Source: Minisyncoccota bacterium
Lineage (GTDB): Bacteria > Patescibacteriota > Minisyncoccia > Phycocordibacterales > Phycocordibacteraceae
NCBI GenBank assembly: GCA_018062765.1
Contig: JAGORR010000001.1
Location: 217,249-281,248, forward strand
Direction of reading: 5' to 3'
DNA length: 64,000 nucleotides
A program made the translations under genes and the position numbers. The notes below the pieces were generated by a model. It had not been told where the DNA came from, ran no database searches, and worked only from the letters and a program-made list of their open reading frames with translations. Below are positions 26,271-61,521 of this stretch, piece by piece; within the stretch, counting starts at the first letter, position 1; each line of letters starts with the position of its first letter.

Positions 26271-26404
26271 GAGGGGTAGTGTGTGGAAGATAAAGGACCC
26301 TGGGGTTTTGCCCCGGGGTTTTTCGTATGTAGCTGGTCCAGGACGCACCCCTCGACATGGCTACTTAGAGAGGTAGGGGTCGATTTCTAAAAAGAAGTTT
26401 TTGT

Positions 26405-28578: not shown

Positions 28579-28580
28579 CT

Positions 28581-31094: not shown

Positions 31095-31103
31095 TAAAAA
31101 TCT

Positions 31104-31991
31104 ATGGCACTTTTTCAATCAAAAAACGATAAGGTTACACAGGTCGGTATAGACCTGTCGCAATTTAGAAACGAGGCTGCCCTACGAGATTTTTTTGCTG
31201 GAAATCTTGAGGAACTTTTAGGACTTCGATTTCTTGCGAATGAATACAGAACCACAGATGGGCGTATAGACACCTTGGCAATTGATGAGGTGGGTACTCC
31301 GGTAATAATTGAGTACAAATGGGATGAGAACGATGCTATTCTCCCGCAAGGCTTGTCCTACATGGCTTGGCTAAAAGACAATAAACGTTTATACGATTTG
31401 CTCGTATCAGATAGACTAGGGAAAGATATCAAAGTGTTTTGGGACATTCCGCGTCTCATTCTTGTAGCACAGCGCTTTGATCGTCGCACGCTCGCTGCCG
31501 CCGGAGAAGCGAAAAATAGTGTTGAACTCATTAAATATACACCTTACGACTCGGGCATATTACATCTTGAAACAGTTTACGGTTCTGAAAAAGTAAGAAC
31601 AGTTTCAGAAACAGTAGCTAAATTGTCATCAAAAGGTGTCAAATATTCTCTCGACCATCATTTAAATAGGGTAAACGAGGATGTTAAGCAGATGTTCTAC
31701 GCTCTTCAAGCAGAAATTCTTAAATGGACAAACGTAGACGAGAGGATCGATCAAAAAGTAGGGATAACGTATCGTACGACCAAGAGTTTCGTCCGTTTCG
31801 AGTTCGGTAAGAGCTATGTGAATGTTTTGGTACGAGACCCACGCTACGATCACAAAATTGACCCGAAAGGTCTATTGAAGGATGTGTCCTCGTTCGGCTG
31901 GGGTTATAAGGGGGTTGCTAAATTGAAATCGAAAGAGGATGTACAGGATGTTCTTGAGTTAGTGCGGGCATCGTACGAATCTACCCTATAA
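31104..31991 (+). CDS. PD-(D/E)xK (NucS/DUF91-like) nuclease domain plus a DUF5655-like C-terminal domain protein
   Basis: GRIDTLAIDEVGTPVIIEYKWDE fits a D...(E/D)xK core. C-terminal region resembles DUF5655. 295 aa. Confidence 0.45.
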   Translation: MALFQSKNDKVTQVGIDLSQFRNEAALRDFFAGNLEELLGLRFLANEYRTTDGRIDTLAIDEVGTPVIIEYKWDENDAILPQGLSYMAWLKDNKRLYDLLVSDRLGKDIKVFWDIPRLILVAQRFDRRTLAAAGEAKNSVELIKYTPYDSGILHLETVYGSEKVRTVSETVAKLSSKGVKYSLDHHLNRVNEDVKQMFYALQAEILKWTNVDERIDQKVGITYRTTKSFVRFEFGKSYVNVLVRDPRYDHKIDPKGLLKDVSSFGWGYKGVAKLKSKEDVQDVLELVRASYESTL

Positions 31992-32147
31992 CGAGAGGCA
32001 ATTTATATTGCATGTTGCTAAACCTAGTTCTAAGCAGGTGCTAGTTTCAATCAATAGATAAGCGATATTTTTGGCTATTTACATGACAAATGGCTGTGAG
32101 ACAATTATTGGGAATCGGCGTAAGAAACCGCTCCTCACATCGTCTTC

Positions 32148-33518
32148 ATGCAAGTGTCTGTCATTTTCCGCGCTCTTGGTGCTTTCATAGCGCTTTTGGG
32201 ACTTCTCCTTACCCCGTACTCCGCATTCGCCTCACTTAACGGCGATGCGGGCGTATACGCGGACGCTTCTGATCGCCGCGGGCTTTCTGTCTCAGCGTCT
32301 ACCGCCATCGATGGTCTTGGTACTAGCCCCGCATCTGTCGTACCCATGCCGATTCTTTTCGGCGTTTCGGTAGCGAATGTAAAGTCGGATTTCGGGGACC
32401 CGCGCGGCGGGGGAACGCGCACGCACGAGGGCCAGGACTTTATGGCACCTTCCGGGACGCCTATCGTCTCTCCAACTGATGCCGTAGTGCTTAAAACCGG
32501 CTCTGGTCCGACCTCAGGCAAGTACGTCTACACCGCAAACCCGGGCGGGGAGACCTTCGTTTACATGCACCTCTCCGAGATTGCGACTATCGCGGCCGGA
32601 CAGAAGCTTGAGGCGGGGGACGTCATCGGGTACGTAGGGGACACGGGGAACGCAAAGGGTGCTGGCGCGCACCTTCACTTTGAGATTCGTAAGAACCGCG
32701 TGCCGCAGGACCCGTACCCGCGCCTTGCCGACGAGTTTTCTATAGAAGAGAAAATGGAATTTCTCGCAGGTGTGTTTAAGGATTCGGACAACGACACGAG
32801 GCTCGCGGAGCTTCTGGTTGAGACGAGCCGAGGCGAGTTCCTACTAGCGAAGAAAGAGGGTATCGATATTCCAAGCTCGATAGAAGTCGCGCTTGGAGGT
32901 ACGCCAACCAAGAAAGTTGCGGAGGCTGACGATGAAGAGCTTTCGAATGCATCTTCCGTCACTACATCCGTTGGAACTTCTGACCTCGAGCTTGAGGACG
33001 AGGGCCCTGAAGTGGTTGCGATGCAGAAGCTTCTTATTGCGGCAGGAACGGGCCCTGCAGCTAAAGCGCTCGCGGAGGCGGGCGCGACCGGATTCTTTGG
33101 CCCGGCAACCGAGAAGGCACTCATCGAATACCAAAAGACTACAGGGATAAGTCCTGCAGCCGGGTACTTTGGAGCAAAGACGCGCGCAGCGCTTGCGCAT
33201 GGCGCGCCAGCAAAAGCCGCAACTGTCGCCGCTGCAACTCCATCTCCCAAGCCCGCAGCAGACGCATCTGTCGCGAGGGTACTTCCAAATGTTGACCTAG
33301 AAGCGGGTGCTTCCGGTTCCGAGGTGAAGGCTCTTCAGAACGTCATAATTTCGCTGGCAGCAGGAGAGAAAGCAGCGGCACTTAAGGAGGCGGGAGCGAC
33401 CGGATACTTCGGCCCTGCAACGCGCGAGGCACTTGTTGAGCTTCAGAAAGCGAGGGGTATCGCGCCAGCCACAGGGTACTTCGGCAGCCTGACCCGTAAT
33501 ACGCTCGCGGCAAAATAG
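32148..33518 (+). CDS. secreted M23/LytM-family metallopeptidase with two C-terminal peptidoglycan-binding (PG_binding_1) domains
   Basis: Signal peptide. HEGQDF...GDTGNAKGAGAHLHFEI (HxxxD / HxH). Two repeats of G.EV.A.Q..L...G.....G..GFFGPAT..AL..YQ. Confidence 0.85.
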   Translation: MQVSVIFRALGAFIALLGLLLTPYSAFASLNGDAGVYADASDRRGLSVSASTAIDGLGTSPASVVPMPILFGVSVANVKSDFGDPRGGGTRTHEGQDFMAPSGTPIVSPTDAVVLKTGSGPTSGKYVYTANPGGETFVYMHLSEIATIAAGQKLEAGDVIGYVGDTGNAKGAGAHLHFEIRKNRVPQDPYPRLADEFSIEEKMEFLAGVFKDSDNDTRLAELLVETSRGEFLLAKKEGIDIPSSIEVALGGTPTKKVAEADDEELSNASSVTTSVGTSDLELEDEGPEVVAMQKLLIAAGTGPAAKALAEAGATGFFGPATEKALIEYQKTTGISPAAGYFGAKTRAALAHGAPAKAATVAAATPSPKPAADASVARVLPNVDLEAGASGSEVKALQNVIISLAAGEKAAALKEAGATGYFGPATREALVELQKARGIAPATGYFGSLTRNTLAAK

Positions 33519-38949: not shown

Positions 38950-41900
38950 ATGACTCATATTACTTTCGCTTCGCGATCGGCTATCGCCCGATTCGCAAGC
39001 GCGCTCACGGTGTTCGCGCTCGTCGCGACACCGTTCATGACTCTTATTCCTGCATCGGCGCATGCGACCGCGCCGACACCAGCAAGCATTTCGATTGATA
39101 CTGTCGAAGATGATAATGGCTCATATACTTCGCCTTTTGATTTCTCATGCCCTGTAGATGGTAATGAAGGAGAAATAACCATCTACGGTAGCGGAGCGAG
39201 CGCAAGCAACTCCCCGGGGCAGATTGAAGACTATGCCGTTGCAATAGATTGGGGAGATGGGAGCGCAACAACCACAGATCTTGGCACGTTCACTCCTCCT
39301 TCAGGGACGTCTACGTTCACGTACGAATTCACAGCTTCCCATTCGTATTCCTCCTACGGACCAAAAACTGTCACTGCATACCTTTACCATGGAAGCCTAA
39401 ATGGAAACGATGGTGATGCTGTGGCGACAATCACTTTATCTCCTTGCAGCACCGATCCGGGTGTGACCACCGACGCTGCAGACAACATCAGCCACACGGA
39501 CGCTACTATGCACGGTACCAACGGGCCTGTAGCAGCGACAAACTCCTCGTACTGGGTCTCCCTTGCGCCGATTGATACCGGCTCGTCCTCCATTCCGCCA
39601 GGCGTCTACTCAACCCCGACTCAGGGAGCGGTAGCTGCTAATGGCGCCCTTGCCGGGACGCCCCTTTCTTCTGTCGCGACTTCCGGCATCCCAGGAAACA
39701 TCCCAGGCGGTATACAACCAGATACCACGTACTACTTCGTTGCGTGGATCGAAGTCGGCGGAGACTGGTATCCGGGCGAAGTCCTCTCTGTCACGACCCT
39801 CCCTGATCCTGAAGTACCGCCGGCCTGCGGAATCATGGATAACACCACGTTCGACGGATTCTCTCTCGGCAGCGTAAACGGCCAGGGCGGATGGGGTATA
39901 ACCGGTCCCTACGACCACGCTATCGTCGATAACACCTACGGCTTCCCAACTTTCGGTTGTAAGACGCTTCGTATCTCGAACGCCGTAACCGCTGGTTCGT
40001 TCGGTGACCAAATCTTCTCCTACTCAGTCGCCAACGAGGCAGGTGAGACTGTTGCTGAGAATAACGGCATGTCAGGGGGTACTCGCCAGGAGCGCTTCGA
40101 GGCAGAGTTCGATATCGCCTCCGCTGATGCAGACGTTTACCAGCCGGGCCTCGCTGTCACTGTCTCTCCCGACCGGGGTGATGGCGCTCGCATGAGCTAT
40201 CTTCGCTTCGAGGATTCCCCGGACGGTATCGATGTCTATTTCTACGACGTGCAGAGCTCGACTGATCCTGCGAACTTCGTCCAGACCCAGATCGCAAATG
40301 ATCTTCCGCGCACCTCGCCGCACACGGTGAAGCTCGTCATGGATTTCGTTGACGGCCCGGTAAGTCCGGCAGCGCTCCCTGCGAACGATGTCGTCGAAGT
40401 CTTCATCGACGGCGTCTCCGAGCATATCGGGACAAGCTGGGAAAACTATTACCGCTACGATAATGAGTCGAACCCTGGCCTTATCGACACGAGCCGCACC
40501 GTCGACTCGCTCCTCTTCCGTGTCGCTGGCACGGCTGCTCCGGAAACGGATGAGGAGGGCTTCCTCTTCGACAATGTCTCCATAGAGACCGGCCCTACAC
40601 CAGGCCCTGTCGTAGAGACCTCGACCGTGACCCTCTGTAAGTACGCAGACACGTACCCCGAGGAGACTCCACTCCCAGGATGGACGCTCACTCTTACCGG
40701 CGACACCGTACAGGAAAGTTTCGCCGTCCCTGTTGCAGACCCTGTAGGTGTTAACTCAAATCCTCTCGTAGCCGGAGTTTCCTACGTGGCAACGGCGATG
40801 GGTACTTGGCTCAATGACCGGCCAGATGATGCGCCTGAAGGAAACGATGTCGACGCTGAGTACTCGACGATCGACGAGTGGGTAACCCAGATGGACGGCT
40901 ACGACGGATTCGGTACCAATATCCTTGAGCTCGAGATCAATGAGACCGATGGCGAGTGGGGTACATACAACAGCAGCCATACGTACGCACAGGCCTTCAC
41001 CGTTGCTGCTGACGGCCCTGCGAACTTCCGGATCTTCGATGGCGACGGTGCGCATGTTCAGCAGCCAAGCTGGTTTGCCGACAACAAAGACAGCACGCTC
41101 GAAGTAGAGATCTCCGAAGGATATGCCGGCGTAACTGGAGAGAACGGCTGCGTAACGTTCGAAGATGTGCCATTCGGTAGCTACGAAGTAGGCGAGGTCA
41201 TGCAGGACGGCTGGGAGAACGAATCCGGACTTGGCGAGGTAACGGTGGATGAGGAGGAAATGGTCTTCGATGTCGTCAATCATAACGACGACTTCGGCAA
41301 TGATTCCTGCATGCTCGTAAGCGACACAACGACCCTCGAGGGTGGTACTGCTTCCGACCTCGTGCCGGAGCCGCATCATGAATCATGGACCGCCGTAGTA
41401 GACATGCTCGCGATGTGGATCTGGGGAGATGAGGAAGTCACTGATCCGACTGGTGAGGAGACTCAGGTCTTCACGAAGACGTTCTGGCTTGAGTCCGTAC
41501 CAGCGTCTGACGCGACCCTGGTCATCGGAGCCGATAACTCGTACGAAGTCGAACTCAATGGCACTCCAGTGGGTAACGATGCCAACGAGGACAACTACAC
41601 TAACGCTGAAAAGGACACGATTACGATTCCTATGGCGGACTTCGAGCTCGGTGCGAACACGCTCGTCTTCACGGTGAAGAACATCGCGTTTGGCGGCGGC
41701 ACGCAGGAGACGAATCCGGCCGGACTCATCTACAAGCTCACTATCCCAGGAACGGAGTGTCAGCAGACGCCTCCTGACCAGGCGGAGCTACAGGTCCACA
41801 TCTACAAGTACATCCAGGATGAGAACGATGCTATAGCGCTCGCAACCGAGGGAAGCTTCCCAATGAGCGCGACCTGGGACGCTGCCAACATCGGCGCGGG

Positions 41901-43257
41901 CTCCGGCAACTACGCGCTTAACGCGGGGAACAGCTATCACGCTGCAACGAGCCCGATGTCACAGCAGGCCGACTACAGCACCTACGAAGTCACGGATGGA
42001 AATCCTGTCATGCCTGCGGACAGTAATAGCTGTCCGGCGGATAAGTACCGACTCGTAGGCTACAAGACCGGAGATACGCTCATCGAAGCTGAGAACGACG
42101 CAATAGACGACGACTTCCCGGTCTTCGATAGTCTCGACGCTGATAAGTATGTAATCGTAGTCAACGAAGATTGTGATGACCTTGATATCCCACCTACCGA
42201 GCAGGTGAAGGTTCACATCTACAAGTACCTCGAGGATGAAAACGATGTAGCGACGCAGATTCCTGACAATGCGGAGATAGCGCCGTTTGCGATGACGGCG
42301 ACATGGACCGCAGATAACCTAAATAGCGGGACCGAGTCTTCCGGTGAGTATGTCCTCGGTAACAATCACGGCGGAACATCGCTTACGTACGCTGCGGATA
42401 CATCACCGATGGATGTCGGCGCTGATTACACGACTTCGGAGATTACCGGCGAGAACGGTGTCCTTCCGGTTGGTGGTGAGTGCGTTGAGGGTGCGTATCG
42501 CCTCGTGGGCTACAAGTCGGGCACGACCCTTGAAGAGGCAGAAGGCGGCGTCGTAACAGCAGCCGCACCAATCTTCACCGACCTCCAAACTGACCAGCAC
42601 GTTATCGTCGTCAACGAGGACTGCGATGACGTATTCGACGACAGTACTCCATCCGAAGAGCAGTTCACTATCACCTCGACGGTTGAAGGAGATGGAACGG
42701 TGACCCCGTTAGGCGCAATCGTCGTTAATGAGGGTGACAATCAGATGTTCACTTTTACTGACGGTGGCCAGTCGCTCGTCGAAGTTCTGATAGACGGCGT
42801 CGATATCGGAAGTCCTGCTGATTACACCTTCTCCAGTGTTAACGCGAACCATACGGTGCACGCACGATTCGCAACGAATGGAGGTGGCGGTGGTGGAGGA
42901 GGCGGAAACAATAACGGTGGTCAGGTTCTCGGTGCATCCACCGACGACATGTGCATCCCGCTCCTCCATACGTATATGCGCATGGGTATAGTGAACGACG
43001 CACAAGAGGTTATGGACCTTAAGGGCTTCCTTAACGAGGAAATGGGACTGACGCTTCCGATTGACTCGAACTTCGACGCAGCGACGGATGCTGCGGTGCG
43101 TGCATTCCAGACGAAGTACAAGACCGAAGTGCTTGATCCGTGGACACCGTTTGGCTTCAATGATCAGCCGACCGGCTACGTGTTCAAGCTGACCCAGTGG
43201 AAGGTAAACTCAATCCACTGTGCTCCAACGATTTATCCGTTCCCAGCGCTCCCATAA
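38950..43257 (+). CDS. giant (1435 aa) secreted cell-surface protein with tandem ~130-aa domain repeats, poly-Gly linker and C-terminal peptidoglycan-binding domain
   Basis: Signal peptide. Internal duplicated module (VHIYKY[IL][QE]DENDA...YRLVGYK[TS]G.TL.EAE...HVIVVNEDCDD, twice). GGGGGGGGGNNNGG linker. C-terminal PG_binding_1-like domain (AVRAFQTKY). Confidence 0.8.
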   Translation: MTHITFASRSAIARFASALTVFALVATPFMTLIPASAHATAPTPASISIDTVEDDNGSYTSPFDFSCPVDGNEGEITIYGSGASASNSPGQIEDYAVAIDWGDGSATTTDLGTFTPPSGTSTFTYEFTASHSYSSYGPKTVTAYLYHGSLNGNDGDAVATITLSPCSTDPGVTTDAADNISHTDATMHGTNGPVAATNSSYWVSLAPIDTGSSSIPPGVYSTPTQGAVAANGALAGTPLSSVATSGIPGNIPGGIQPDTTYYFVAWIEVGGDWYPGEVLSVTTLPDPEVPPACGIMDNTTFDGFSLGSVNGQGGWGITGPYDHAIVDNTYGFPTFGCKTLRISNAVTAGSFGDQIFSYSVANEAGETVAENNGMSGGTRQERFEAEFDIASADADVYQPGLAVTVSPDRGDGARMSYLRFEDSPDGIDVYFYDVQSSTDPANFVQTQIANDLPRTSPHTVKLVMDFVDGPVSPAALPANDVVEVFIDGVSEHIGTSWENYYRYDNESNPGLIDTSRTVDSLLFRVAGTAAPETDEEGFLFDNVSIETGPTPGPVVETSTVTLCKYADTYPEETPLPGWTLTLTGDTVQESFAVPVADPVGVNSNPLVAGVSYVATAMGTWLNDRPDDAPEGNDVDAEYSTIDEWVTQMDGYDGFGTNILELEINETDGEWGTYNSSHTYAQAFTVAADGPANFRIFDGDGAHVQQPSWFADNKDSTLEVEISEGYAGVTGENGCVTFEDVPFGSYEVGEVMQDGWENESGLGEVTVDEEEMVFDVVNHNDDFGNDSCMLVSDTTTLEGGTASDLVPEPHHESWTAVVDMLAMWIWGDEEVTDPTGEETQVFTKTFWLESVPASDATLVIGADNSYEVELNGTPVGNDANEDNYTNAEKDTITIPMADFELGANTLVFTVKNIAFGGGTQETNPAGLIYKLTIPGTECQQTPPDQAELQVHIYKYIQDENDAIALATEGSFPMSATWDAANIGAGSGNYALNAGNSYHAATSPMSQQADYSTYEVTDGNPVMPADSNSCPADKYRLVGYKTGDTLIEAENDAIDDDFPVFDSLDADKYVIVVNEDCDDLDIPPTEQVKVHIYKYLEDENDVATQIPDNAEIAPFAMTATWTADNLNSGTESSGEYVLGNNHGGTSLTYAADTSPMDVGADYTTSEITGENGVLPVGGECVEGAYRLVGYKSGTTLEEAEGGVVTAAAPIFTDLQTDQHVIVVNEDCDDVFDDSTPSEEQFTITSTVEGDGTVTPLGAIVVNEGDNQMFTFTDGGQSLVEVLIDGVDIGSPADYTFSSVNANHTVHARFATNGGGGGGGGGNNNGGQVLGASTDDMCIPLLHTYMRMGIVNDAQEVMDLKGFLNEEMGLTLPIDSNFDAATDAAVRAFQTKYKTEVLDPWTPFGFNDQPTGYVFKLTQWKVNSIHCAPTIYPFPALP

Positions 43258-49392: not shown

Positions 49393-50016
49393 ATGGCAAT
49401 AGTTGCGCGCATACTCGAGAACACGACTGCCGTCGCCGTAGCGGCGCAGCCGCCCTTAAAGACACCGGAGCCGACGGCCGTATTCGCGCTATTTGCTCCT
49501 GAGGAGCAGTCAGGTGCGCGTTTTTTTGACGACACTGCGCTTGGGGTACGCTCCTTCACTCTTCCTGCGTTGGACCTCCGACTTATCTTCGAGCCTACGC
49601 GCGTCAGGCTCGAGGCAACCGCGCCTAAGCCGGTCGATGTGCTTCCGTTGGGTACACGCCTAGCAAATGTCGTCGCGGCCATATATCCCAATGTTCCGTT
49701 TCTTCGCTATGGATTCAACTACGACCGCACGTTCCAATACGACGCCGTCATCCCACAGCGCCACATCATGGAGGCGTTCATGGACGCGGAGGCCGTGAAT
49801 GCGATGACGCATTTTGGCTGGCAGTGCACCTTGCAGAAAGAGAAGGGTAAGCGGAAGGAAACCTACTTCTTCAAGGTCGTCTCGCCGCTTGAGATACGAA
49901 TCCTCGCGAATATCGAGTTCGATCGGGTACTTCCAGAAGCAGGCAAGTGCCAGACAGAGTTCGCGCAGTGCGCGGATGACGCGATGCATATCGTCGAACG
50001 TCTCCGTTTTTCCTAA
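49393..50016 (+). CDS. hypothetical protein
   Basis: 207 aa, translationally coupled to its neighbours. Confidence 0.4.
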   Translation: MAIVARILENTTAVAVAAQPPLKTPEPTAVFALFAPEEQSGARFFDDTALGVRSFTLPALDLRLIFEPTRVRLEATAPKPVDVLPLGTRLANVVAAIYPNVPFLRYGFNYDRTFQYDAVIPQRHIMEAFMDAEAVNAMTHFGWQCTLQKEKGKRKETYFFKVVSPLEIRILANIEFDRVLPEAGKCQTEFAQCADDAMHIVERLRFS

Positions 50017-50017
50017 C

Positions 50018-51484
50018 ATGACCGTAACCCGCAACGGCGTACGACTTACGAGGCGGAGCAAGCGCTGGTGGCGGCTTGCGTTCATACTTGCTGCCGAGGG
50101 TGTGCTTTCCGCGTTCGTCTACATGTCCTTGGCGGCGCATATCCTCTGGCCAGAAGACTCTAAAGCTGCCACCGGCGTCTCCGCGATGCTCTCCTATGAG
50201 GGAAGGCTTATGGACGCGTCGGGGAACCCGCTTGGCGGCACCGGCACCCCATACTGCTTCCGCTACTCCATATACGACGCAGCCTCGGGTGGCACGAAGC
50301 TCTGGCCCGCAGGCACCCCTAATACATCGCTCGCCACTTCTACCGACGGCGTGTTCTCGTCCCTCATTGGCCAGGCGGATGCGCTTACCTATAACTTTTT
50401 TGATAGCGATACTGTCTACCTCAACGTCGATGTGTACACGGTGGCAGCGTCTGGAGGCACCTGCTCGGGCGGTTCGTGGGAGAGTCTCACGCCCCGTCAG
50501 CAGATTGCCTCAACCGGCTACGCGCAGACCGCAAAAAACACCTACGGCGGCTCGATACAGGTGGGTGACGGCGCCGGCGTAACGCTCAATTATCTTGCGC
50601 TCGACGTGAAGAATACGGACGACTACATCGGTCAGTCCTGCACCACAAGCGGCACCGTGTGGTACAACTCCGCGATATCAAAGACACTCGTCTGCGAGAA
50701 CTCGGTCATACAGGCGATTTCGAATGCGTCTGCGACGACGACGATTGCGGGCATCACAACGAACACTGCCGCTGCAGCATCTACCGGTACCATCGTTTTC
50801 AGTAACGCAAACGGCGTTACCTTCGGCATCAACGGACAGACCATCACTGCTTCTGTTGCCGCCGCTGGCGGCGGCATCACCTACAGCGGATATGCACCTG
50901 ATCATTTGGGTAAGGAGCTCGTCGCGGGTCAACAGGGACAAGGGACCTTCTTTGTTCAGCCGATGTGGAACGCTCCCTCGTTCCAGTTCGATAGACTCGT
51001 TTTGCCCATCAACTTCTCCAACACCTCAAACCTTTCGGGAAGCGGCACCGTCTCGTTCTGGATTGGCATTTACAGCAGAAACGTATCGTCGCTTTCGCTC
51101 GTGATGAGCACTTCCATATCAACGAACGTCACGATGTCTGGGACGGTCGGTAGCTATTCGCTCTACGCTGGACCGAGAAACCTTGCTATTCCATGGACGA
51201 GCACCGTATCCGGAAGCGACTACTGGATTGGCATCGGCTCTCGTACGACCACGGGCGGCGCCGCGATGTCGATCTCACAATTCCTGGCTTCACAACCGAA
51301 CTCAAACTATTCGGGAAATTTCGGTTCAGCGAACAATGCCACCAAAGGAATGATTATGGGACAAGGTTTCTATAGTGCTACGACATCAGCAGTCCCGGCT
51401 TCGATCGCCTTCACGCAAATCAATGGAACGGGTTCGCTCAATAGGCGCCCCCCAGTGTATTACTTCATGAGCGGTACGATATGA
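50018..51484 (+). CDS. membrane-anchored Ser/Thr/Gly-rich surface protein, hypothetical
   Basis: Internal ATG one nt after the upstream stop. N-terminal TM. Long S/T/G/N-rich beta-rich region. Confidence 0.45.
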   Translation: MTVTRNGVRLTRRSKRWWRLAFILAAEGVLSAFVYMSLAAHILWPEDSKAATGVSAMLSYEGRLMDASGNPLGGTGTPYCFRYSIYDAASGGTKLWPAGTPNTSLATSTDGVFSSLIGQADALTYNFFDSDTVYLNVDVYTVAASGGTCSGGSWESLTPRQQIASTGYAQTAKNTYGGSIQVGDGAGVTLNYLALDVKNTDDYIGQSCTTSGTVWYNSAISKTLVCENSVIQAISNASATTTIAGITTNTAAAASTGTIVFSNANGVTFGINGQTITASVAAAGGGITYSGYAPDHLGKELVAGQQGQGTFFVQPMWNAPSFQFDRLVLPINFSNTSNLSGSGTVSFWIGIYSRNVSSLSLVMSTSISTNVTMSGTVGSYSLYAGPRNLAIPWTSTVSGSDYWIGIGSRTTTGGAAMSISQFLASQPNSNYSGNFGSANNATKGMIMGQGFYSATTSAVPASIAFTQINGTGSLNRRPPVYYFMSGTI

Positions 51485-52218: not shown

Positions 52219-53184
52219 ATGAAATACTTCATTTTCGTCCTTAGTTTGCTCCTCATCGGCGGAGCCGGCTGGTATTTCGGGAGCGTTTCGAACGTTGCCG
52301 AGGGTATCCGAGCTTCAGTAGTGCAGGATGATTCAAGTCTTACGTCTGGCAACTACCCACTCATCAATGAGACGGTTACCTCCGGCCTCGGGAAGCACTA
52401 CATCATCAATATGCAGCCGCTCAGGGAAAGGTTGGTTGCGATAGCGGAGGAGTATAGCTACAAGAAGCATGTCTATTTCGCCTACCTGAATAACGACTCC
52501 TGGATTGGTATCAACGAGCGCGAGTACTTCACTGCCGCATCGACCATCAAGGTGCCGCTTGCGATGAGTATTATGCACGCGGTCGAGGAGCGAAAAATAT
52601 CTCTTGATGATACGTACACCGTACAGAGCGAGGATTTGGATGATAACTTCGGTGAGCTCTACAAGACTGCTGAGGGTAAGACATTCACGATACGGGAGCT
52701 GATGAAGATTACGCTCGAGGAGTCCGATAACACAGCCTCGTCCGCTCTCTTCCATGCACTTCAGGAAATTGGCATCCAAGATCCATTTTCAAATGTGTAC
52801 ACATTCATGGGATGGGACAACTATCCCGGTGTTGGAGAGTCGCCAGAATACTTCGATGTCAATCTTAAGATTCTCTCGAACATGTTTCTCGCGCTCTACA
52901 ACGCAAAGTATGTCGATGTCGATTCATCACAGGAGATTCTCGACTATCTCGATAACGAGAATTTCAATGAGCAGATAGTGGCCGGCGTCCCGGACGGGAT
53001 CCCTGTCGCGCACAAAAGCGGCGTACAGACAGAATCAGACTCGTATTCAGATTGCGGAATCGTATATGCTCCGAACCGTCACTACCTGCTCTGCATAGGC
53101 TCCGAGGGCGCACCAAAACCAGTGGCAGATGCATTCATGAAGGAAATTTCTAAAACGGTGTACGATTACATCATCAATAACTAG
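52219..53184 (+). CDS. class A beta-lactamase-family serine hydrolase, membrane-anchored
   Basis: S-x-x-K (ASTIKV), SDN (ESDNTAS), KSG (HKSGV) motifs; N-terminal TM. Confidence 0.75.
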   Translation: MKYFIFVLSLLLIGGAGWYFGSVSNVAEGIRASVVQDDSSLTSGNYPLINETVTSGLGKHYIINMQPLRERLVAIAEEYSYKKHVYFAYLNNDSWIGINEREYFTAASTIKVPLAMSIMHAVEERKISLDDTYTVQSEDLDDNFGELYKTAEGKTFTIRELMKITLEESDNTASSALFHALQEIGIQDPFSNVYTFMGWDNYPGVGESPEYFDVNLKILSNMFLALYNAKYVDVDSSQEILDYLDNENFNEQIVAGVPDGIPVAHKSGVQTESDSYSDCGIVYAPNRHYLLCIGSEGAPKPVADAFMKEISKTVYDYIINN

Positions 53185-54702: not shown

Positions 54703-56070
54703 ATGAAGCGGCTCCTTCCGCTCATCCTCCTCGGGCTTATCCCAACCGCGGCTTTTGCATGGAATGCTACTTCGACGTCCTTTTACGTACGTCAGAATAT
54801 CCAATCGATTTCAGGGGGTAACGCGACCTCCTCCTACAGCACCTCGACATCGTTCATGCTGCTTTCTGCGGGCGGACAGACGGCCGTCGGCACCTCGTCA
54901 CCTGGAGCGACCTATAGCCTTGGGAGCGGGATACTGCAGAACTTGAATGAGAGCGTGCGTCCGGAGTACACGCTTGCTCACTACCATTGGCGGCAAGATG
55001 ATGGTAACGAAGCAGCCGCGACTTCCGCGACCGGAAGCGAGGATACGCCTAACTCGACCATTACCAAGCTCGCGACCGCGCGTCTGCGCATCGCGGTCTC
55101 TAACGAGGGCGGGACCGAGGCAGCGTACGCTGCGCAGACACTCCGTCTTGAATACGGAGTCAAGGCGACGACCTGTGCGGATATCGTGAGCTGGACGGAC
55201 GTAGGGGAGAATGGCGGCCACTGGGATATGTCGGACTCTGCGAATCTCACGAACGGCGCGAACACCACGAATATCGCAACCGCAACTGGCGGTGTCTCAG
55301 ACCCAAATCACACATTCATCTCTTCTAACGCAGGCGTGCGCGATACCGGAAGCTCCTTGGGTGCGCTCTCTATATCAAGCGATTCATTTGTTGAAGCGGA
55401 ATTTTCAATCGAGGCGACGTCGTCTGCGACGGATGATGGTGATTATTGCTTCCGGGTCACGAACGCAGGGTCGACCACCGACTTCGTGTATGAAGAATAT
55501 CCGGAAGCGACGATATCAGTCGCAATGTCTTTCTCCACTACGCATACGAATTTCCCTTCAATCACTCCTGGGATACCCACTTTTGCCACAACCACGCTTT
55601 CGGTCTCAACCAGCAACTCCTCGGGCTGGAACGTTATCCTTTCAGGTGACGATCAGGGGCCGTCGGACACGGTAATGGACCTTACGACTGACGCCGCGGT
55701 GGGTATCGCGGACCAACTCGAGTGGATACCGGGCGCGGCGACCACCTCCGCCGGAAACGCGGTCCGCATAAACTCCTTCGATAACTCGGGCGACGTCCTT
55801 GCGTTTCGCGTTATGACAGCGTCAGGAACGACTGCATTTCGCGCTTCTTCCTGGTGGGGAAGCACGGACTCGTATGTGGATTCCGCGACAACACTTTGGG
55901 CTGGCATCGCTTCCTCGACCGCAACCAACAAGAAAATCGGTAACACTAACGTTTCGTCAGGCGGCAGTCCCGTCCTCTCCTCTGTGGTGTATTACCTTGA
56001 TGTCCCGGCAAACCAGCAGCAGGGCAGCTACTCGGGAGACATAACCTACACCGCAAGTGCGAACCCATAA
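54703..56070 (+). CDS. secreted WxL-like domain surface protein (paralog A)
   Basis: Signal peptide. C-terminal ~190 aa paralogous to the next gene. SGWNVILSGDDQG and terminal YSGDITYTASANP resemble WxL motifs (G.W.L.... / GdYtstltWtLtdaP). Confidence 0.5.
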   Translation: MKRLLPLILLGLIPTAAFAWNATSTSFYVRQNIQSISGGNATSSYSTSTSFMLLSAGGQTAVGTSSPGATYSLGSGILQNLNESVRPEYTLAHYHWRQDDGNEAAATSATGSEDTPNSTITKLATARLRIAVSNEGGTEAAYAAQTLRLEYGVKATTCADIVSWTDVGENGGHWDMSDSANLTNGANTTNIATATGGVSDPNHTFISSNAGVRDTGSSLGALSISSDSFVEAEFSIEATSSATDDGDYCFRVTNAGSTTDFVYEEYPEATISVAMSFSTTHTNFPSITPGIPTFATTTLSVSTSNSSGWNVILSGDDQGPSDTVMDLTTDAAVGIADQLEWIPGAATTSAGNAVRINSFDNSGDVLAFRVMTASGTTAFRASSWWGSTDSYVDSATTLWAGIASSTATNKKIGNTNVSSGGSPVLSSVVYYLDVPANQQQGSYSGDITYTASANP

Positions 56071-56123
56071 TGGGGATAACCAGTGTCTAGACATGGCGAG
56101 GGTAAGGTAATATGGATTTCATG

Positions 56124-56801
56124 AAGATTTCATCTGACTCCTTGGAGACTATTAAGACCGGGTCTGCAGCGCTTCTTATTGCTACCTTCGTCTTCTCCTC
56201 TTTCTACGCGTACCGAGCGCACGGCGAGGCCGTTTCGCTTTCGGTCTCCGTCGCTTCCGCACTCACCTTTACTACGACTACAGACCAGTTCGGTACCCTT
56301 ACCCCAGGAACCTATAAAATCGCAACCACGACGCTTTCGGTAACCACGAACAATACCGCAGGGTGGAATATCACTCTGTACGGAGATGATCAGGGATCTT
56401 CAGACACGGTCCTCGACCTCACAACTGACGCTGCGGTTGGTATCACGGACCAGACTGAGTGGGTACCTGGAGGCGCGACAACTTCCGGAGGTAATGCTGT
56501 CGTTCGTGGTTCACTCGATAGTTCCGGTGACGTGCTTGCGTTCCGTGTGATGAGTGCATCCTCCTCAAACGGTACACCATTCCTTTCAACCGGGTGGTGG
56601 GGAACTTCAGACGCCGACGGCACGGCTAAGTTCGCCGGCATCGCTTCCTCCACTGTCGGTCGCCAGATTGGTAACGCGGGTACAGGCTCCTATAGCGCCA
56701 CGGCGCACCTTAACACCGTCCAGTACTACCTGGACGTCCCAGCCTCCCAGCAGACCGGTTCTTACGACGGCGGGCTTACCTACACAGCAACGGCCAACTA
56801 G
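56124..56801 (+). CDS. secreted WxL-like domain surface protein (paralog B)
   Basis: AGWNITLYGDDQG ... YDGGLTYTATAN. Shares 60-70% identity over about 190 aa with the C-terminus of the upstream gene. Confidence 0.5.
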   Translation, partial: KISSDSLETIKTGSAALLIATFVFSSFYAYRAHGEAVSLSVSVASALTFTTTTDQFGTLTPGTYKIATTTLSVTTNNTAGWNITLYGDDQGSSDTVLDLTTDAAVGITDQTEWVPGGATTSGGNAVVRGSLDSSGDVLAFRVMSASSSNGTPFLSTGWWGTSDADGTAKFAGIASSTVGRQIGNAGTGSYSATAHLNTVQYYLDVPASQQTGSYDGGLTYTATAN

Positions 56802-56818
56802 GGTAGGATAGGCGCACC

Positions 56819-57730
56819 ATGAATACAGCGAGGATCCTTGGCACTCTCGCTCTCTCGATACTATTCGCCGCTAGCCCCGTCGGAGCGTATGCCGCCTCGA
56901 CCGGACTCACCATACAGCCGATAAAGGCGTCTTACACGCTTGCTCCTGGGGCAAGCGTGTCGGGCGCTATATCGCTTACTAACGCGTCGACAAACGCGGC
57001 CGTACAAGTCGAGCTTAAGGTAGAAGACTTCATTCCGCTTGCCGGGAGCGACCAGTTGCAATTCGTCTCGCGCGCACCAGGCGTCACGACCGTGCGCGAT
57101 TGGGTAACCCTTAATGGGGGCGAGCATGTTATTCGGCTTGAGAAGGGGGAGAGTATCGCGGTTCCGTTTACCATCACGGCGCCCGCGGACGCGGAGCCGG
57201 GAAGCCACTTTGGTGCTGCCTTCTTTAAGGCGATAGATATTGCTGATGTTGATAAGCAGCTCAAGGTCGGCACACAGGTCGGCATGCTCATGTTCGTCAC
57301 GGTTCCTGGAAATTACGCGCAGAAGGGAGAAATTACGTCGTTTACTGCGCCTCGGTTCGTGCAGCGTACCCCGTTCGATTTCAAGATTGGCTTTACGAAC
57401 ACCGGTACCGTGCACTTTGAGCCCAAGGGATCAGTCACGGTACGTAACATTTTTGGTTCGGTAGTCGCTGAGGTGCCGGTCGAAGGACAGGTGGTACTCC
57501 CGACTGGCTCTAAGGAACTCACTGCGCGCTTTGCAACCGACAGCTTCCTTTTAGGTAGGTACGCTGCCATCGTGCATCTTGCTGACGGTGAAGGGAACCC
57601 GCTGACGTCTGAGGAGCGCACCTTCTACGTATTTCCGGTGTGGTACACGCTCGGCTTCATCCTTTTCGCACTCTTCCTATTCTTCGGGCTTCGCTTCCTC
57701 AAGCGGCGCGTGCGCATCAGCCTAAAATAA
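56819..57730 (+). CDS. DUF916/DUF3324-like cell-surface protein with a C-terminal TM anchor (WxL-locus partner)
   Basis: Signal peptide, two Ig-like beta domains, C-terminal TM plus RRVR stop-transfer. Architecture matches the membrane partner of WxL operons. Confidence 0.45.
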   Translation: MNTARILGTLALSILFAASPVGAYAASTGLTIQPIKASYTLAPGASVSGAISLTNASTNAAVQVELKVEDFIPLAGSDQLQFVSRAPGVTTVRDWVTLNGGEHVIRLEKGESIAVPFTITAPADAEPGSHFGAAFFKAIDIADVDKQLKVGTQVGMLMFVTVPGNYAQKGEITSFTAPRFVQRTPFDFKIGFTNTGTVHFEPKGSVTVRNIFGSVVAEVPVEGQVVLPTGSKELTARFATDSFLLGRYAAIVHLADGEGNPLTSEERTFYVFPVWYTLGFILFALFLFFGLRFLKRRVRISLK

Positions 57731-57733
57731 TGA

Positions 57734-58744
57734 ATGACGCGCTACCTTGCCACCCTTCTCGGGTTTCTTGCGCTCCTTACGCCATTCTCAGCGTACGCTG
57801 ACCTTGTCGGCTCTTCCGAAGTGAACTTGTCAGTGACCGTTGCTGCGCTCGCCGCATGTCAGGACGGTATCGACAACGATAGCGACCTCTTGATCGACTA
57901 CCCCGACGATACGGGGTGTTCAAGCGCAACTGATACGACCGAGACAGTCGAATCTTCCGGAGGTGGTGGAGGCGGCGGAGGCGGGGGTGGAGGCGGCGGG
58001 GGAGGTGGATCGGGGAGTACACAAGCGGTGTTTCGTGGCCGCGCGTACCCGGGCAGCAAGGTGACCGTGCTTAAGGACGCCCGCATCATCGTCTCCACCG
58101 TCGCCTCTCCTGACGGTACCTTCGATGTCACCGCTAAGAAAATCACGCCAGGAACGTATACCTTCAGCGTCTACGGTACTGACAAGCGCGGTGTGCAGTC
58201 TGCAACGCATGCATTTACGGTTGCGATGACGGCGAATGTGACCAATATCGTGAGCGGTATCTTTTTGCCGCCCACCATGACCATCGACAAAAAGGAGGTG
58301 CGCTGGGGAGAGGTGCTCGTTACTATCGGGCAGACGAACCCGTCGTCTGAGGTGACTATCTTCGTCAATTCCGAACGCGAAGTGGTGAAGAAGGTGTTCG
58401 CTTCTGCTGACGGCTCATGGCTTCTAAATTTCGATACGACCGAGATTGAACGCGGCAACCACAGCACACAGTCGCGTGCCGCAAAGCAGGGGGAGATAAG
58501 CCCCTTATCAAAGCCGCTTTCATTTAAGGTGGGCGACCGCACGGTGTATGCGGAAAGCGAGAGCGAGTCACAGGCGACAAGTAAGGGAGACGTAAACGGG
58601 GACAGTCGCGTGAACCTTGTCGACTTCTCGGTTGTAGCGTATTGGTTTAAGCGCGCGAACCCCCCGGCAACCGCTGACCTTAACGGGGACGGGCAGGTGA
58701 CGCTGGTGGACTTTTCGATACTTGCCTATAACTGGAACGGTTGA
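57734..58744 (+). CDS. secreted protein with poly-Gly linker, Ig-like domains and a C-terminal type-I dockerin
   Basis: GDVNGDSRVNLVDFSVVAYWF ... ADLNGDGQVTLVDFSILAYNW are the two Ca-binding dockerin repeats. G17 linker. Confidence 0.75.
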   Translation: MTRYLATLLGFLALLTPFSAYADLVGSSEVNLSVTVAALAACQDGIDNDSDLLIDYPDDTGCSSATDTTETVESSGGGGGGGGGGGGGGGGGSGSTQAVFRGRAYPGSKVTVLKDARIIVSTVASPDGTFDVTAKKITPGTYTFSVYGTDKRGVQSATHAFTVAMTANVTNIVSGIFLPPTMTIDKKEVRWGEVLVTIGQTNPSSEVTIFVNSEREVVKKVFASADGSWLLNFDTTEIERGNHSTQSRAAKQGEISPLSKPLSFKVGDRTVYAESESESQATSKGDVNGDSRVNLVDFSVVAYWFKRANPPATADLNGDGQVTLVDFSILAYNWNG

Positions 58745-58745
58745 T

Positions 58746-59729
58746 ATGGACGATTCACGTGAAAATCGCGAGCTGCAGCGTTACGGGTCCCTCCGCTCCG
58801 CTCCGCCGTATAGCCTATACGTCTACGCGAAGCTTAGTCCCGCGCCTGGCATCTCATCGATTTTCACGCGAATCGTAGTGGCTGCGATGTGCGCGCTACC
58901 CCTTCTGTCGATACCAGCATTGGTGGAAGCTGCGGAGATACATTTCAATCCTCAGGACAGCTCGATTGGTACCGAGGGGGAATTCCTGGTCGGAGTTAAT
59001 CTCACGTCCGAAGAGCGGGTTAACGCCATTTCACTCGTGCTTCCTATTCCGACAGGGCTCCGGCTCATGGGCGTGTCTGACGGCAACTCCATTGTCACTC
59101 TTTTCGTAGAGTCGCCTGCGTTTGATGAGGACGAGCGAAGCCTCTCGTTCTCAGGAGTCATTCCTAATGGATTTTCTGGAGAGGAGGGGCGGCTCGTGAC
59201 ACTCACGTTTGCGCCTGAGAAGCGCGTAGGGTCCGCCACGTTCGTCCTCGACCCGGGAAGCGAGGCGTACGCCAAGGAGGGTGAGCCAGTCGCTTTGTAC
59301 GGACGTGCGCTCACCCTTCCGTTTGCCGCAGGGAAGCGCAACCTGCAGGACTTTCCGCCAGACCGCGATCCTCCGGAGGAGTTCGATCCCGTTCTCATAC
59401 CTGATCCGTCGCCGCAAGGAAGCGGTCTCCTTATCGCATTCTCTACAGTAGACAAAGCCTCCGGCATCGAACGCTACGAGGTGAAGGAAAGTGTTTGGGG
59501 AAATTGGTTCCCGTCATACGGATGGCAAGAGACAACGAGTCCACATCGCTTAACGGATGCAACGCGCACGAGTTGGGTGTATGTGCGCGCGACTGATGAG
59601 GCGGGTAACAGTTATGTTGCGATGATTCCGCCGGAGCGCTCACCGTTTGTTGTATACATCCCAATCTTGCTTGGAATCATCGTGCTACTCTTTATCGTAT
59701 ATGCACGTTACGCGCGTAGGTCGCGCTAG
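58746..59729 (+). CDS. membrane-anchored cohesin-like domain protein
   Basis: GEFLVGVNLTSEERVNAISLVLPIP.GLRLMGV ... GRLVTLTFAPEKRVGSATFVLD cohesin-like beta-sandwich pattern. C-terminal TM. Confidence 0.5.
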   Translation: MDDSRENRELQRYGSLRSAPPYSLYVYAKLSPAPGISSIFTRIVVAAMCALPLLSIPALVEAAEIHFNPQDSSIGTEGEFLVGVNLTSEERVNAISLVLPIPTGLRLMGVSDGNSIVTLFVESPAFDEDERSLSFSGVIPNGFSGEEGRLVTLTFAPEKRVGSATFVLDPGSEAYAKEGEPVALYGRALTLPFAAGKRNLQDFPPDRDPPEEFDPVLIPDPSPQGSGLLIAFSTVDKASGIERYEVKESVWGNWFPSYGWQETTSPHRLTDATRTSWVYVRATDEAGNSYVAMIPPERSPFVVYIPILLGIIVLLFIVYARYARRSR

Positions 59730-61521
59730 CGCCGTTCTCATTCTTTTTTTCGCACTCACTGGGAGTGCTTCGGCAGCAACGCTGTCCGTGGGTTCTGTCT
59801 CTGGCACAGTAGGGCAGACGGTGTCGGTACCGGTCACTGTCTCTGCTGGGTCTGGTGAATCTCTGAACGCCGTTTCAGTAAACATATCGTTCCCGACCGA
59901 TAAGCTCTCTCTCACCTCGATATCAAAAGCTTCATCGATAATCAGTTTGTGGGCGCAAGAGCCTGTCTATTCAAACGTTAACGGCACTGCGGCGCTTGAG
60001 GGCATTATCCCGAACCCTGGGTACTCAGGCTCCTCAGGGCGAGTCGCGCTTCTGACTTTTACGATAAAGGCAGCGGGAAGCGCGACCGTTTCTTTTTCAA
60101 GCGCTTCGGTGCTTGCAAATGACGGCCAAGGCACCAACATCCTACGCTCGAGCAATCCAGGAACGATAACCGGCTCTGCAGGAGCCGCGCCAGCTCCCAC
60201 GCCTGCACCGGCTGCGCCTTCCTCTACGGAGCCGGCTGAAGAATCCGAGGACGAGTCAGTCGAATCAGATGAGGGGCTACCAAAATCCGCGTTTACTATC
60301 ACAAGCAAGACTCATCCTGAACAGCTTTCGTGGTATCGCGCAGACACCGGTACCTTCTCGTGGCCAGTGCCGCCAGGCGCCTCTGCTACGCGCCTCTTGT
60401 TGAGTCAGTCTGCGTCAGCAATTCCATCGGTGGCGTACCCAAACGCGATAGGGGAAAAGACGATTGACGAGCTTCCTGAGGGCACGAGCTACCTTGCGGT
60501 GCAGCATCAGGTGGGTGGCGTCTGGGGTGAGGTGGGGCGCTATCGCGTGAATGTGGACACGACGCCACCTCGCTCATTCCGTATAACGTTCCCGCACGGC
60601 TCGGAAGGATTCAACCCGCAACCGATTATCCTTTTCAATACGCTCGATGGGGAGTCGGGCATCGATCACTACGACGTGCGCGTTGGCGCGGGCGACCTCC
60701 TGCGGAAGACGGCGGCGGCTGACTCAAACCCATACATGTTGCCGATGCTTGAGCCTGGCACCCATACCGTGCGTGTTACCGCGTACGACCGCGCTGGTAA
60801 TGAGACTTCGGATGAGGCGTCAGTAGAGGTCGAAGGAATCGAAGCACCTCGCTTCACCCACTACGAGGAGGTGGTCACGACTGCTGATAATCTCAAGCTC
60901 CGCGGCATCACCTATGAGAATGCGGATGTAAATGTTCATATCTACGACGAGGATGGCGTCCTGGTGACCGAGGAATTCACCCGCTCCAACACACTCGGAG
61001 ACTTCGCCGTTCTTATCTCGAAGCACCTATCTGCGGGCGAATACACCGTAACTGCTCGCGTGACCGATGATCGTGGCGCACGCAGTCTCGAATCCAGTCC
61101 GCTACCGTTTACCATAGAGGGCCGGTTCTTTACGATACTTCAGGAACTCCTCTACGATTACTTGGCGCCTCTCATCGTCTTCGTCACCGCGGTTGGCGGA
61201 GCGCTTTACGTACTCTTCATTGCCGCTGAGCGCCTATTGCGCAGTATGAAGGGCCTCAACGCTCTTGGACTTACTGTGCGTCGCGAGCCGAGCCCGGAGG
61301 ACACAACTCACAAAGCGTTCATGCTCCTCAAGCAGGACCTCGCATCCTACCGTCGCATTCTTGCCGCCGCTAAAAAGCATCGAGAGCTTACCGGCGAGGA
61401 GGAAGCATTCCTCGAGCGATTCAAGGAAGACCTTACGGACGCGGAGTCCGTGATAACCGAGACCATCAAGAAGCGACGTGCGCCGCGACGTGTGAAGAAA
61501 CTCGAGGTTACTGAGGAGTAG
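59701..61521 (+). CDS. membrane-anchored cohesin-domain protein with additional Ig-like domains
   Basis: ATLSVGSVSGTVGQTVSVPVTVSAGSGESLNAVSVNISFPTDKLSLTSI...GRVALLTFTIKAAGSATVSFSSASVLANDGQG is a close match to the cohesin consensus. C-terminal TM plus charged tail. Confidence 0.7.
   Translation: MHVTRVGRASAVLILFFALTGSASAATLSVGSVSGTVGQTVSVPVTVSAGSGESLNAVSVNISFPTDKLSLTSISKASSIISLWAQEPVYSNVNGTAALEGIIPNPGYSGSSGRVALLTFTIKAAGSATVSFSSASVLANDGQGTNILRSSNPGTITGSAGAAPAPTPAPAAPSSTEPAEESEDESVESDEGLPKSAFTITSKTHPEQLSWYRADTGTFSWPVPPGASATRLLLSQSASAIPSVAYPNAIGEKTIDELPEGTSYLAVQHQVGGVWGEVGRYRVNVDTTPPRSFRITFPHGSEGFNPQPIILFNTLDGESGIDHYDVRVGAGDLLRKTAAADSNPYMLPMLEPGTHTVRVTAYDRAGNETSDEASVEVEGIEAPRFTHYEEVVTTADNLKLRGITYENADVNVHIYDEDGVLVTEEFTRSNTLGDFAVLISKHLSAGEYTVTARVTDDRGARSLESSPLPFTIEGRFFTILQELLYDYLAPLIVFVTAVGGALYVLFIAAERLLRSMKGLNALGLTVRREPSPEDTTHKAFMLLKQDLASYRRILAAAKKHRELTGEEEAFLERFKEDLTDAESVITETIKKRRAPRRVKKLEVTEE

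Follow-up and report, generated by a model that had tools for sequence, protein, structure and literature searches.

We examined a gene cluster on the + strand of a 64,000-nucleotide stretch of bacterial DNA (contig JAGORR010000001.1, positions 217,249 to 281,248; hereafter "the window"), in which three open reading frames (ORFs), here called A, B, and C, are followed directly by three more, D, E, and F. An original prediction, made from the letters of the window alone, had read A and B as two paralogous WxL-like surface proteins and C as their membrane anchor, as in the WxL operons of Firmicutes. We describe below how C retains this kinship in the form of a remote homology, how the domain shared by A and B appears to be pilin-like, and how the six genes may together build a surface fibre.

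Organization of a conserved six-gene cluster

The ORF listing of the window places A, B, and C on the + strand where they had been predicted, with intergenic gaps of 41 nucleotides (nt) between A and B and 17 nt between B and C. The features of the cluster are as follows, with amino acid (aa) positions counted within each protein:

54703-56070, + strand: gene A, large subunit, 455 aa (ORF listing, BLASTP, family hidden Markov model (HMM))
A, aa 1-19, + strand: signal peptide
A, aa 20-269, + strand: variable N-terminal domain with two Cys
A, aa 270-455 (nt 55510-56067), + strand: shared C-terminal domain, pilin-like by prediction
56112-56801, + strand: gene B, small subunit, 229 aa
B, aa 1-38, + strand: signal peptide, ending in AHG and followed by EA
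B, aa 39-50 (nt 56226-56261), + strand: amphipathic N-terminal extension EAVSLSVSVASA, candidate donor strand
B, aa 51-229, + strand: domain that is pilin-like by prediction
56819-57730, + strand: gene C, membrane-tethered WxLIP/PapD-like two-domain protein, 303 aa
C, aa 1-25, + strand: signal peptide, MNTARILGTLALSILFAASPVGAYA followed by A
C, aa 29-163, + strand: beta domain 1, with a long hairpin at 128-162 (AlphaFold2)
C, aa 170-271, + strand: beta domain 2 (AlphaFold2)
C, aa 274-297, + strand: transmembrane (TM) helix, then the basic tail KRRVRISLK (AlphaFold2)
57734-58744, + strand: gene D, 336 aa, proposed strand-donating terminator and anchor adaptor; signal peptide, orphan strand, acidic Cys repeat, 16-Gly run, Big_6/Big_13 immunoglobulin (Ig) domains, dockerin
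D, aa 29-41 (nt 57818-57856), + strand: orphan strand SEVNLSVTVAALA, directly after the signal peptide
D, aa 284-330, + strand: C-terminal dockerin (Pfam Dockerin_1)
58746-59729, + strand: gene E, 327 aa from the ATG at 58746; cohesin-like N-terminal domain and C-terminal TM helix, proposed membrane receptor for the dockerin of D
59701-61521, + strand: gene F, 606 aa from the ATG at 59701; cohesin domain, OmpL47-like and Big_13 Ig domains, TM segment, charged C-terminal tail

Pfam scored the domains of D at 36.1 bits (Dockerin_1) and 37.7 bits (Big_6), and those of F at 38.3 bits (Cohesin) and 37.5 bits (Big_13). The N-terminal ~130 aa of E are homologous to the cohesin region of F (E-values of 5e-15 to 3e-9), and a TM segment is seen in the translations of both proteins. 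A scan from 53 to 62.5 kilobases returned no promoter, and terminator-like sites at chance level, which is uninformative.

The order large subunit, small subunit, C, D, E, F recurs in independent contigs (L001, L003, L004, L074, and L075), and the trio D-E-F (57734-61521) lies directly downstream of the triad A-B-C in most related contigs. D follows C in six of seven independent contexts, and a C homologue is adjacent to the subunit genes in every context examined; in contig L002, a single unrelated gene takes the place of D to F. Judging from this gene order, A to F form one conserved six-gene operon. It has many relatives, with at least 445 clusters of B and at least 394 clusters of C at 90% identity. 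Because the named homologues of B, C, and D all come from the Candidate Phyla Radiation (CPR), namely, Patescibacteria, Parcubacteria, Kaiserbacteria, Sungbacteria, and Nomurabacteria, the host is, on sequence grounds, a CPR bacterium (Paceibacterota/Paceibacteria) and not a high-GC Gram-positive; an actinobacterial or other high-GC Gram-positive origin is thereby rejected. In nr, a fragment 100% identical to D is listed from "Candidatus Paceibacterota bacterium." The original prediction is to be corrected on this point, the GC content of the window being about 55% and the host being from the CPR.

The C-terminal domain shared by A and B is pilin-like

As had been noted from the letters, A and B share a C-terminal domain of ~200 aa. 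BLASTP aligned the two proteins at 54% identity over 202 residues (E = 2e-64), from position 261 to 454 in A and from 32 to 229 in B, i.e., over all of mature B, and at such values the similarity is judged to lie far beyond chance. The motifs that had been quoted for the domain are in place as well, with SGWNVILSGDDQG and YSGDITYTASANP in A and AGWNITLYGDDQG and YDGGLTYTATAN in B. Across the whole window, an HMM of the A/B family matched A and B only, and an exhaustive profile search yielded 222 family representatives at 50% identity. The domain ended at most 5 residues from the C-terminus in all 129 full-length representatives, in host proteins that span about 200 to 3569 aa, the long ones of which carry unrelated adhesin-type N-terminal parts (propellers, fn3, and Laminin_G_3). 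With this strictly C-terminal position, and with a large protein followed by a small one and by a two-Ig protein that a TM helix anchors, the genes are laid out like a WxL cluster, in line with the original prediction.

The assignment of the domain itself as WxL did not hold up. As a reference, we used the WxLIP signature NQIDKxxxYFDLK to pick 68 loci of Firmicutes and took from them 40 WxLIPs, all of which match PF06030 and PF11797, and 40 small WxL proteins, 39 of which match PF13731 (best 1e-72) and serve as its positive control. Pfam returned no match of PF13731 to A or B at E <= 10, and this family was likewise absent among those reported for 70 close and 50 distant A/B-family members. 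A Firmicutes WxL HMM that was run against all ORFs of the window gave no match to A or B. In profile-profile comparisons using hhalign, where unrelated control pairs reached 0.3-1%, the A/B family aligned with Firmicutes small WxL proteins at a probability of 1.5-3.4%, and with the C-terminal domains of large WxL proteins at 24.9% (E = 7.8e-4) over the last 26 columns only. In these columns, the pattern Y-LDVP-tQ-sG-YsG-ITyTAt-NP of the A/B family is set against i-L-vp----g-Y--tisWtL-d-P of the large WxL proteins. A relaxed alignment additionally brought the GW-h-h motif into register, with all motifs in the same order and a score that was not significant, and the comparison gained nothing from a broader family profile (129 representatives, Neff 5). 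Hence, the proposed parallel to the two W-x-L motifs, with Tyr in place of the second Trp, stands only in part: the C-terminal motif does align, but the first aromatic residue among the 129 representatives is W in 46, Y in 46, and F in 33, and the second is Y in 86 and F in 27 and never W, whereas both W residues are invariant in true WxL domains. The solved WxL chain 9i25_A was not among the 50 best Foldseek matches of a model of B; this chain is a divergent "long WxL" domain and a poor proxy for PF13731, as the small-WxL profile itself finds it only at E = 0.0024. Searches of all PDB sequences with profiles of the B and C families returned nothing useful. Taken together, these profiles do not identify the A/B domain as WxL, and its assignment as such is wrong or unproven.

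A different family was found instead. The NCBIfam model NF058581, "Pam pilus system pilin subunit," matched 70 of 70 B-family members (best 6e-8), the distant member P0331 aligned to positions 3-145 of its 148, and some distant members also matched the PamT model. These profile matches indicate that the A/B domain is a distant relative of the C-terminal domain of Pam pilins, which are themselves from CPR bacteria. The AlphaFold2 model of B, with a predicted local distance difference test score (pLDDT) of 79.9, points in a similar direction: its closest folds are the donor-strand subunits CanX, EcpD, FimA, and Caf1, and Foldseek also returned the TasA fibre and Csu. The coordinates of PamA/B (25PZ and 25QA) were not among the PDB matches listed. 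As modeled, the domain is pilin-like, resembling both Pam pilins and the pilins of chaperone-usher systems.

Gene C is a remote homologue of WxLIP

The layout that had been read from the letters of the third gene, with a signal peptide, two beta domains, a C-terminal TM segment, and a basic tail, was reproduced by AlphaFold2, which modeled C at a mean pLDDT of 91.0 as two all-beta domains followed by a C-terminal helix (274-297). Its description as the membrane partner of WxL operons was borne out in the form of a remote homology. Upon comparing the C family with the 40 Firmicutes WxLIPs, hhalign gave a probability of 95.8-96.0% (E = 5-8e-9) over 220 columns that cover both domains. The top Foldseek matches of the C model, 9i25_C and 9i1y, are both EfmWxLIP1, the best being 9i25_C (E = 3.8e-10), which was solved in complex with a long WxL protein. 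RbmA came second, and the pilus chaperones CfaA, FimC, CsuC, Caf1M, SafB, and DraB matched at E-values of 7e-9 to 5e-7; the matches from WxLIP and RbmA to CfaA, FimC, CsuC, and Caf1M span roughly 1e-10 to 1e-7. A Firmicutes WxLIP HMM that was run against all ORFs of the window found C at E = 0.028. The Pfam models gave a mixed answer: C on its own reached PF06030 (DUF916) with 13.4 bits (E = 0.084; cutoff, 27.3), sub-threshold matches to the same model occurred in 36 of 72 C-family members (best E = 7.4e-5), and C had no match to PF11797 (DUF3324). The WxLIP motif NQIDKxxxYFDLK is missing from C, with an 11-residue gap in its place in the hhalign alignment. Because the profile alignment and the fold agree while the motif is absent and the Pfam scores stay below threshold, C is best described, from its sequence, as a genuine distant homologue of WxLIP rather than a member in the curated sense. 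With the DUF916 similarity of C being real, the triad is more than a paralogous surface family unrelated to WxL operons. Structural modeling thus divided the original prediction, with C matching the WxLIP fold and B matching donor-strand pilins.

A candidate donor strand in the small subunit and in D

After the signal peptide and ahead of the first conserved strand (LTF), the small members of the A/B family (<=262 aa) carry an amphipathic strand of the type x-T-L-T-V-T-V. In these proteins, the hydrophobic fraction amounts to 0.96/0.60/0.78 at alternate positions versus 0.06-0.12 at the positions between, whereas the large members (>=320 aa) are without the strand (0.45/0.28/0.28). At the corresponding site, B reads EAVSLSVSVASA, and A shows a 5-residue deletion and YEEYPEA. 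Classical chaperone-usher pili carry a donor strand at the N-terminus of the shaft pilin and none on the two-domain tip adhesin. By analogy, a strand that is present in the small and absent from the large subunits has the pattern of these classical pili.

The same kind of motif as in the extension of B is found in D, where SEVNLSVTVAALA directly follows the signal peptide. Homologues of D start with ASTTLTVTVSGG, SGTVLTVTIAST, SSILTVTVAG, or GGVTLTVTVS, each followed by low-complexity linkers, and a strict form of the strand motif is 17 times more common within the initial 75 aa of the D proteins than in their remainder. Because the strand is isolated and continues into a flexible linker without a fold of its own, it is best explained as a strand that would be donated in trans. 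The gene that follows C in contig L002 has no relation to D; it encodes GDVVLTANVAE after the signal peptide, as well as a C-terminal TM helix, a design that resembles PamR, to judge by its sequence.

A proposed usher-less fibre and its alternatives

We regard it as somewhat better than an even bet that the operon builds an usher-less, chaperone-assisted donor-strand-exchange fibre, for which the anatomy is seen in the genes and the assembly steps are our inference. All six proteins would be exported by Sec. The shared domain of A and B would form an incomplete Ig-like pilin fold that membrane-bound C holds open, possibly by lending a strand from its hairpin at 128-162, in the manner of the PapD/FimC chaperones and of WxLIP toward WxL. 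A, with its variable adhesin-like N-terminal domain, could start the fibre and would end up at its tip because it has no free donor strand. B could then insert its strand EAVSLSVSVASA into the previous subunit and thereby polymerize as the shaft. Finally, the strand of D, followed by the flexible Gly/Cys linker, may plug the last B subunit, and the dockerin of D may bind the cohesins of the membrane-anchored E and F, which would tie the fibre to the cell. Among the systems that are known, the operon is most likely a divergent relative of Pam pili, in a Paceibacteria version with a WxLIP-type chaperone and a probable dockerin-cohesin anchor. The function of such a fibre would likely be to reach and attach to a host cell or surface.

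Several observations count against this model. The fibre is proposed here from genes and from the predicted models of B and of C as single proteins. The score of B on NF058581 is 24.3 bits, below the cutoff of 55, A has no match to this model, and no NCBIfam Pam model matched the C family. The large subunits appear to lack a Pam-type donor strand, and the small subunit has one, so that the assembly logic would be nearer to classical chaperone-usher pili than to Pam. A looser alternation score for the strand is reached by 38-61% of the D homologues and by beta-rich controls too, and lacks the specificity that a statistical test would need. Lastly, at 5665-9954 of contig L073, a large subunit of 1108 aa is followed by a C homologue with no small-subunit gene between them.

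A first alternative stays closer to the original prediction: the C-terminal domains would hold A and B on the peptidoglycan in a WxL-type, non-polymeric complex that C stabilizes and that displays the N-terminal part of A, with no fibre being formed. The true WxLIP homology of C speaks for such a complex, as do the large/small/WxLIP layout and the strictly C-terminal domain, which fit the definition of a WxL cluster (PMC10599100), and the C-terminal motif L-x-V-P...G-x-Y-x-G-x-h-T-[YW], the sole region that aligns with WxL (at a probability of up to 24.9%). Yet PF13731 similarity was not detected, the family does not conserve the W-x-L residues, pilins figure among the 50 best matches of B in Foldseek and the WxL chain 9i25_A does not, and a static platform leaves the conserved N-terminal strand of B and D unexplained. 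We consider it unlikely.

Another improbable reading, in our estimate, is that of a capped, short heteromeric adhesin, in which C would permanently strand-complement A or B and anchor it, and D-E-F would be an independent cohesin-dockerin display module. It can draw on the TM anchor that C itself possesses, on the missing small subunit in L073, and on two links to PamR, the proposed terminator and anchor of Pam pili: its fold relative RbmA is the second-best Foldseek match of C, and the PamR model NF058578 is matched (8.8e-6) by 2 of 80 Firmicutes WxL-cluster proteins, presumably WxLIPs. It has to contend, however, with the very strong conservation of B across Parcubacteria (60-93% identity), as expected of a major subunit constrained by packing, and with the strand common to B and D and the strict co-occurrence of D-E-F, which speak for one system. 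A self-assembling fibre of the TasA/camelysin type, which would need no chaperone and would leave C with an unrelated surface role, is very improbable, given that the TasA fold scores are no better than those for chaperone-usher pilins and that C, of a chaperone-like fold class, is adjacent in all contexts examined.

If the fibre model is true, it would give a function to a widespread six-gene operon that is mostly annotated as hypothetical, and it would carry the idea of the Pam pilus to another CPR class, with the different assembly logic of a tip adhesin plus a shaft. In groundwater and sediments, few bacteria are as abundant or as poorly understood as the Parcubacteria/Paceibacteria, and we know of no mechanism by which they attach to their hosts. 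An anchoring of a fibre by cohesin and dockerin has no earlier description in the literature that we searched.

Genomic surroundings

The remainder of the window holds ordinary chromosomal genes, among them those for a CTP synthase, a P-type ATPase, Msr, an ABC-F protein, and an M23 peptidase. An island of low GC (0.46-0.48 versus about 0.56) at 26400-32000 contains an Eco57I-type methylase gene and a T5orf172/ResIII gene and is probably an acquired restriction-modification or defence module. The M23 peptidase at 32148-33518 has two PG_binding_1 repeats, and a 1435-aa protein encoded at 38950-43257 has a PG_binding_1 domain at its end; both could possibly be cell-wall-active proteins of an epibiont. 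At 49814-51484 lies a 556-aa secreted ORF rich in Ser, Thr, and Gly, with a weak match (E = 0.0017) to the N-terminal model of the Bdellovibrio mosaic adhesive trimer fibre; a tail-fibre-like protein has been named as a conserved neighbour of pam operons (bioRxiv 10.64898/2026.03.03.709456). Upstream of the cluster, at 52219-53184, we found a class-A beta-lactamase-like gene (Beta-lactamase2), which occupies the same place in L004 and occurs more distantly in L001.

Comparison with known systems

Pam pili have recently been solved in the CPR bacterium Ca. Mycosynbacter amalyticus, where they comprise the pilins PamA/B/E/T, the chaperones PamC/D, and PamR (bioRxiv 10.64898/2026.03.03.709456). 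According to the same preprint, the C-terminal domain of Pam pilins is a truncated Ig-like one, and the pilins assemble through donor-strand exchange, the linker between their N- and C-terminal domains being the donor strand; PamC and PamD are FimC/PapD-like chaperones with a C-terminal TM helix, and PamR is an RbmA-like anchor with an extra N-terminal strand. WxL is not mentioned in it. The present operon resembles Pam in its CPR host, in a C-terminal domain that is probably of the truncated-Ig pilin type (here by sub-threshold matches to NF058581 in all 70 members), in the combination of single-domain and two-domain subunits within one operon, and in a PapD/FimC-like two-domain helper with a C-terminal TM helix, for which PamC and PamD were compared by description. 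Pam pili have no usher, and here no usher family was among the Pfam or NCBIfam matches of A to F or of the neighbouring genes. In both systems, the anchor protein (here the proposed anchor) begins with an extra N-terminal strand, and an ATP synthase operon can adjoin: a complete F-type ATP synthase operon lies immediately after the cluster at 11614-17600 of L003, an arrangement not seen in the window, and pam operons likewise adjoin such an operon (bioRxiv 10.64898/2026.03.03.709456). The differences are equally clear. Scores stay below the NCBI cutoff, and the C family matches no Pam model; the donor strand would reside in the small subunit, which places the operon nearer to a tip-adhesin-plus-shaft design; and the proposed anchor is of the dockerin-cohesin type (D with E/F) instead of an RbmA-like TM protein. 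D shares the N-terminal strand with PamR and has a dockerin in place of the TM helix, and PamR model NF058578 was not among the matches reported for D, E, F, or the C family.

The archaic (sigma) chaperone-usher pili (Csu and CupE, with SCPU-domain pilins) are more remote, since the present system has no outer membrane or usher and a membrane-tethered chaperone, and shows no detectable sequence similarity to them.

The WxL/Csc clusters of Lactobacillales and Bacillales comprise a small and a large WxL protein, a WxLIP (DUF916, DUF3324, and TM), and a small LPXTG protein. By their definition, a large and a small protein stand next to a two-Ig protein with a TM anchor, which is the layout seen here, and AlphaFold2 has predicted that the WxL sandwich is completed by a WxLIP strand (PMC10599100); the PDB now contains a complex of WxLIP with WxL (9i25). 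The likeness to the present operon begins with the helper, which is homologous (96% by hhalign, with EfmWxLIP1 as the top fold match in the PDB). It extends to the four-part layout, in which a large subunit bearing adhesin domains at its N-terminus and a small subunit are accompanied by a two-Ig protein tethered through a TM helix and by an anchor protein (here a proposed one) that shares the N-terminal strand of the small subunit, and also to a domain that is always C-terminal and a common motif, L-x-V-P...G-x-Y-x-G-x-h-T-[WY]-x-h...P. Unlike in these clusters, no PF13731 similarity was detected here and the dual W-x-L residues are not conserved, C is without NQIDKxxxYFDLK and does not reach the thresholds of PF06030 and PF11797, the proposed anchor relies on a dockerin where theirs has LPXTG, and the host belongs to the CPR.

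The Firmicutes loci themselves (L005-L072) offered some side observations. Their small LPXTG proteins consist of a signal peptide, one short strand (e.g., TKGTISFKEE or AEVGISFSG), a spacer, and LPXTG, and the same strand opens their small WxL proteins, where a proline-rich linker comes next. Of the 80 WxL-cluster proteins scanned, 45 matched NF053819, the model of the EF0750 LPXTG protein (best 3.6e-8), the match being to the N-terminal strand part in the one member tabulated. This suggests that the small LPXTG protein could be a strand-donating, sortase-anchored terminator of WxL clusters. The match of two WxL-cluster proteins to the PamR model at E = 8.8e-6, described above, hints at a kinship of WxLIP with the anchor or chaperone proteins of Pam. 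Our literature search found no paper that links WxL domains with donor strands.

A four-part logic is common to the three systems, consisting of a large subunit, a strand-bearing small subunit, a tethered two-Ig helper, and a strand-bearing anchor. It is tempting, on this basis, to see this operon of Paceibacteria, the Pam pili found in Saccharimonadia, and the WxL/Csc clusters found in Firmicutes as versions of one ancient, usher-less donor-strand-exchange fibre of bacteria without an outer membrane, in which the "peptidoglycan-binding" WxL domain would be the pilin and WxLIP the tethered chaperone, and lineages would differ mainly in how the terminator is anchored (LPXTG stalk, dockerin-cohesin, or TM helix). 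We offer this wider view tentatively and think it rather more apt to be wrong than right. If true, the present family would be its sequence bridge, with a WxLIP-like helper and a Pam-pilin-like subunit domain. In Enterococcus and Listeria, the WxL loci are virulence and adhesion factors, and the fibre model, if right, gives a concrete, testable ground for looking at them again as chaperone-assisted strand-exchange assemblies instead of simple peptidoglycan-bound platforms.

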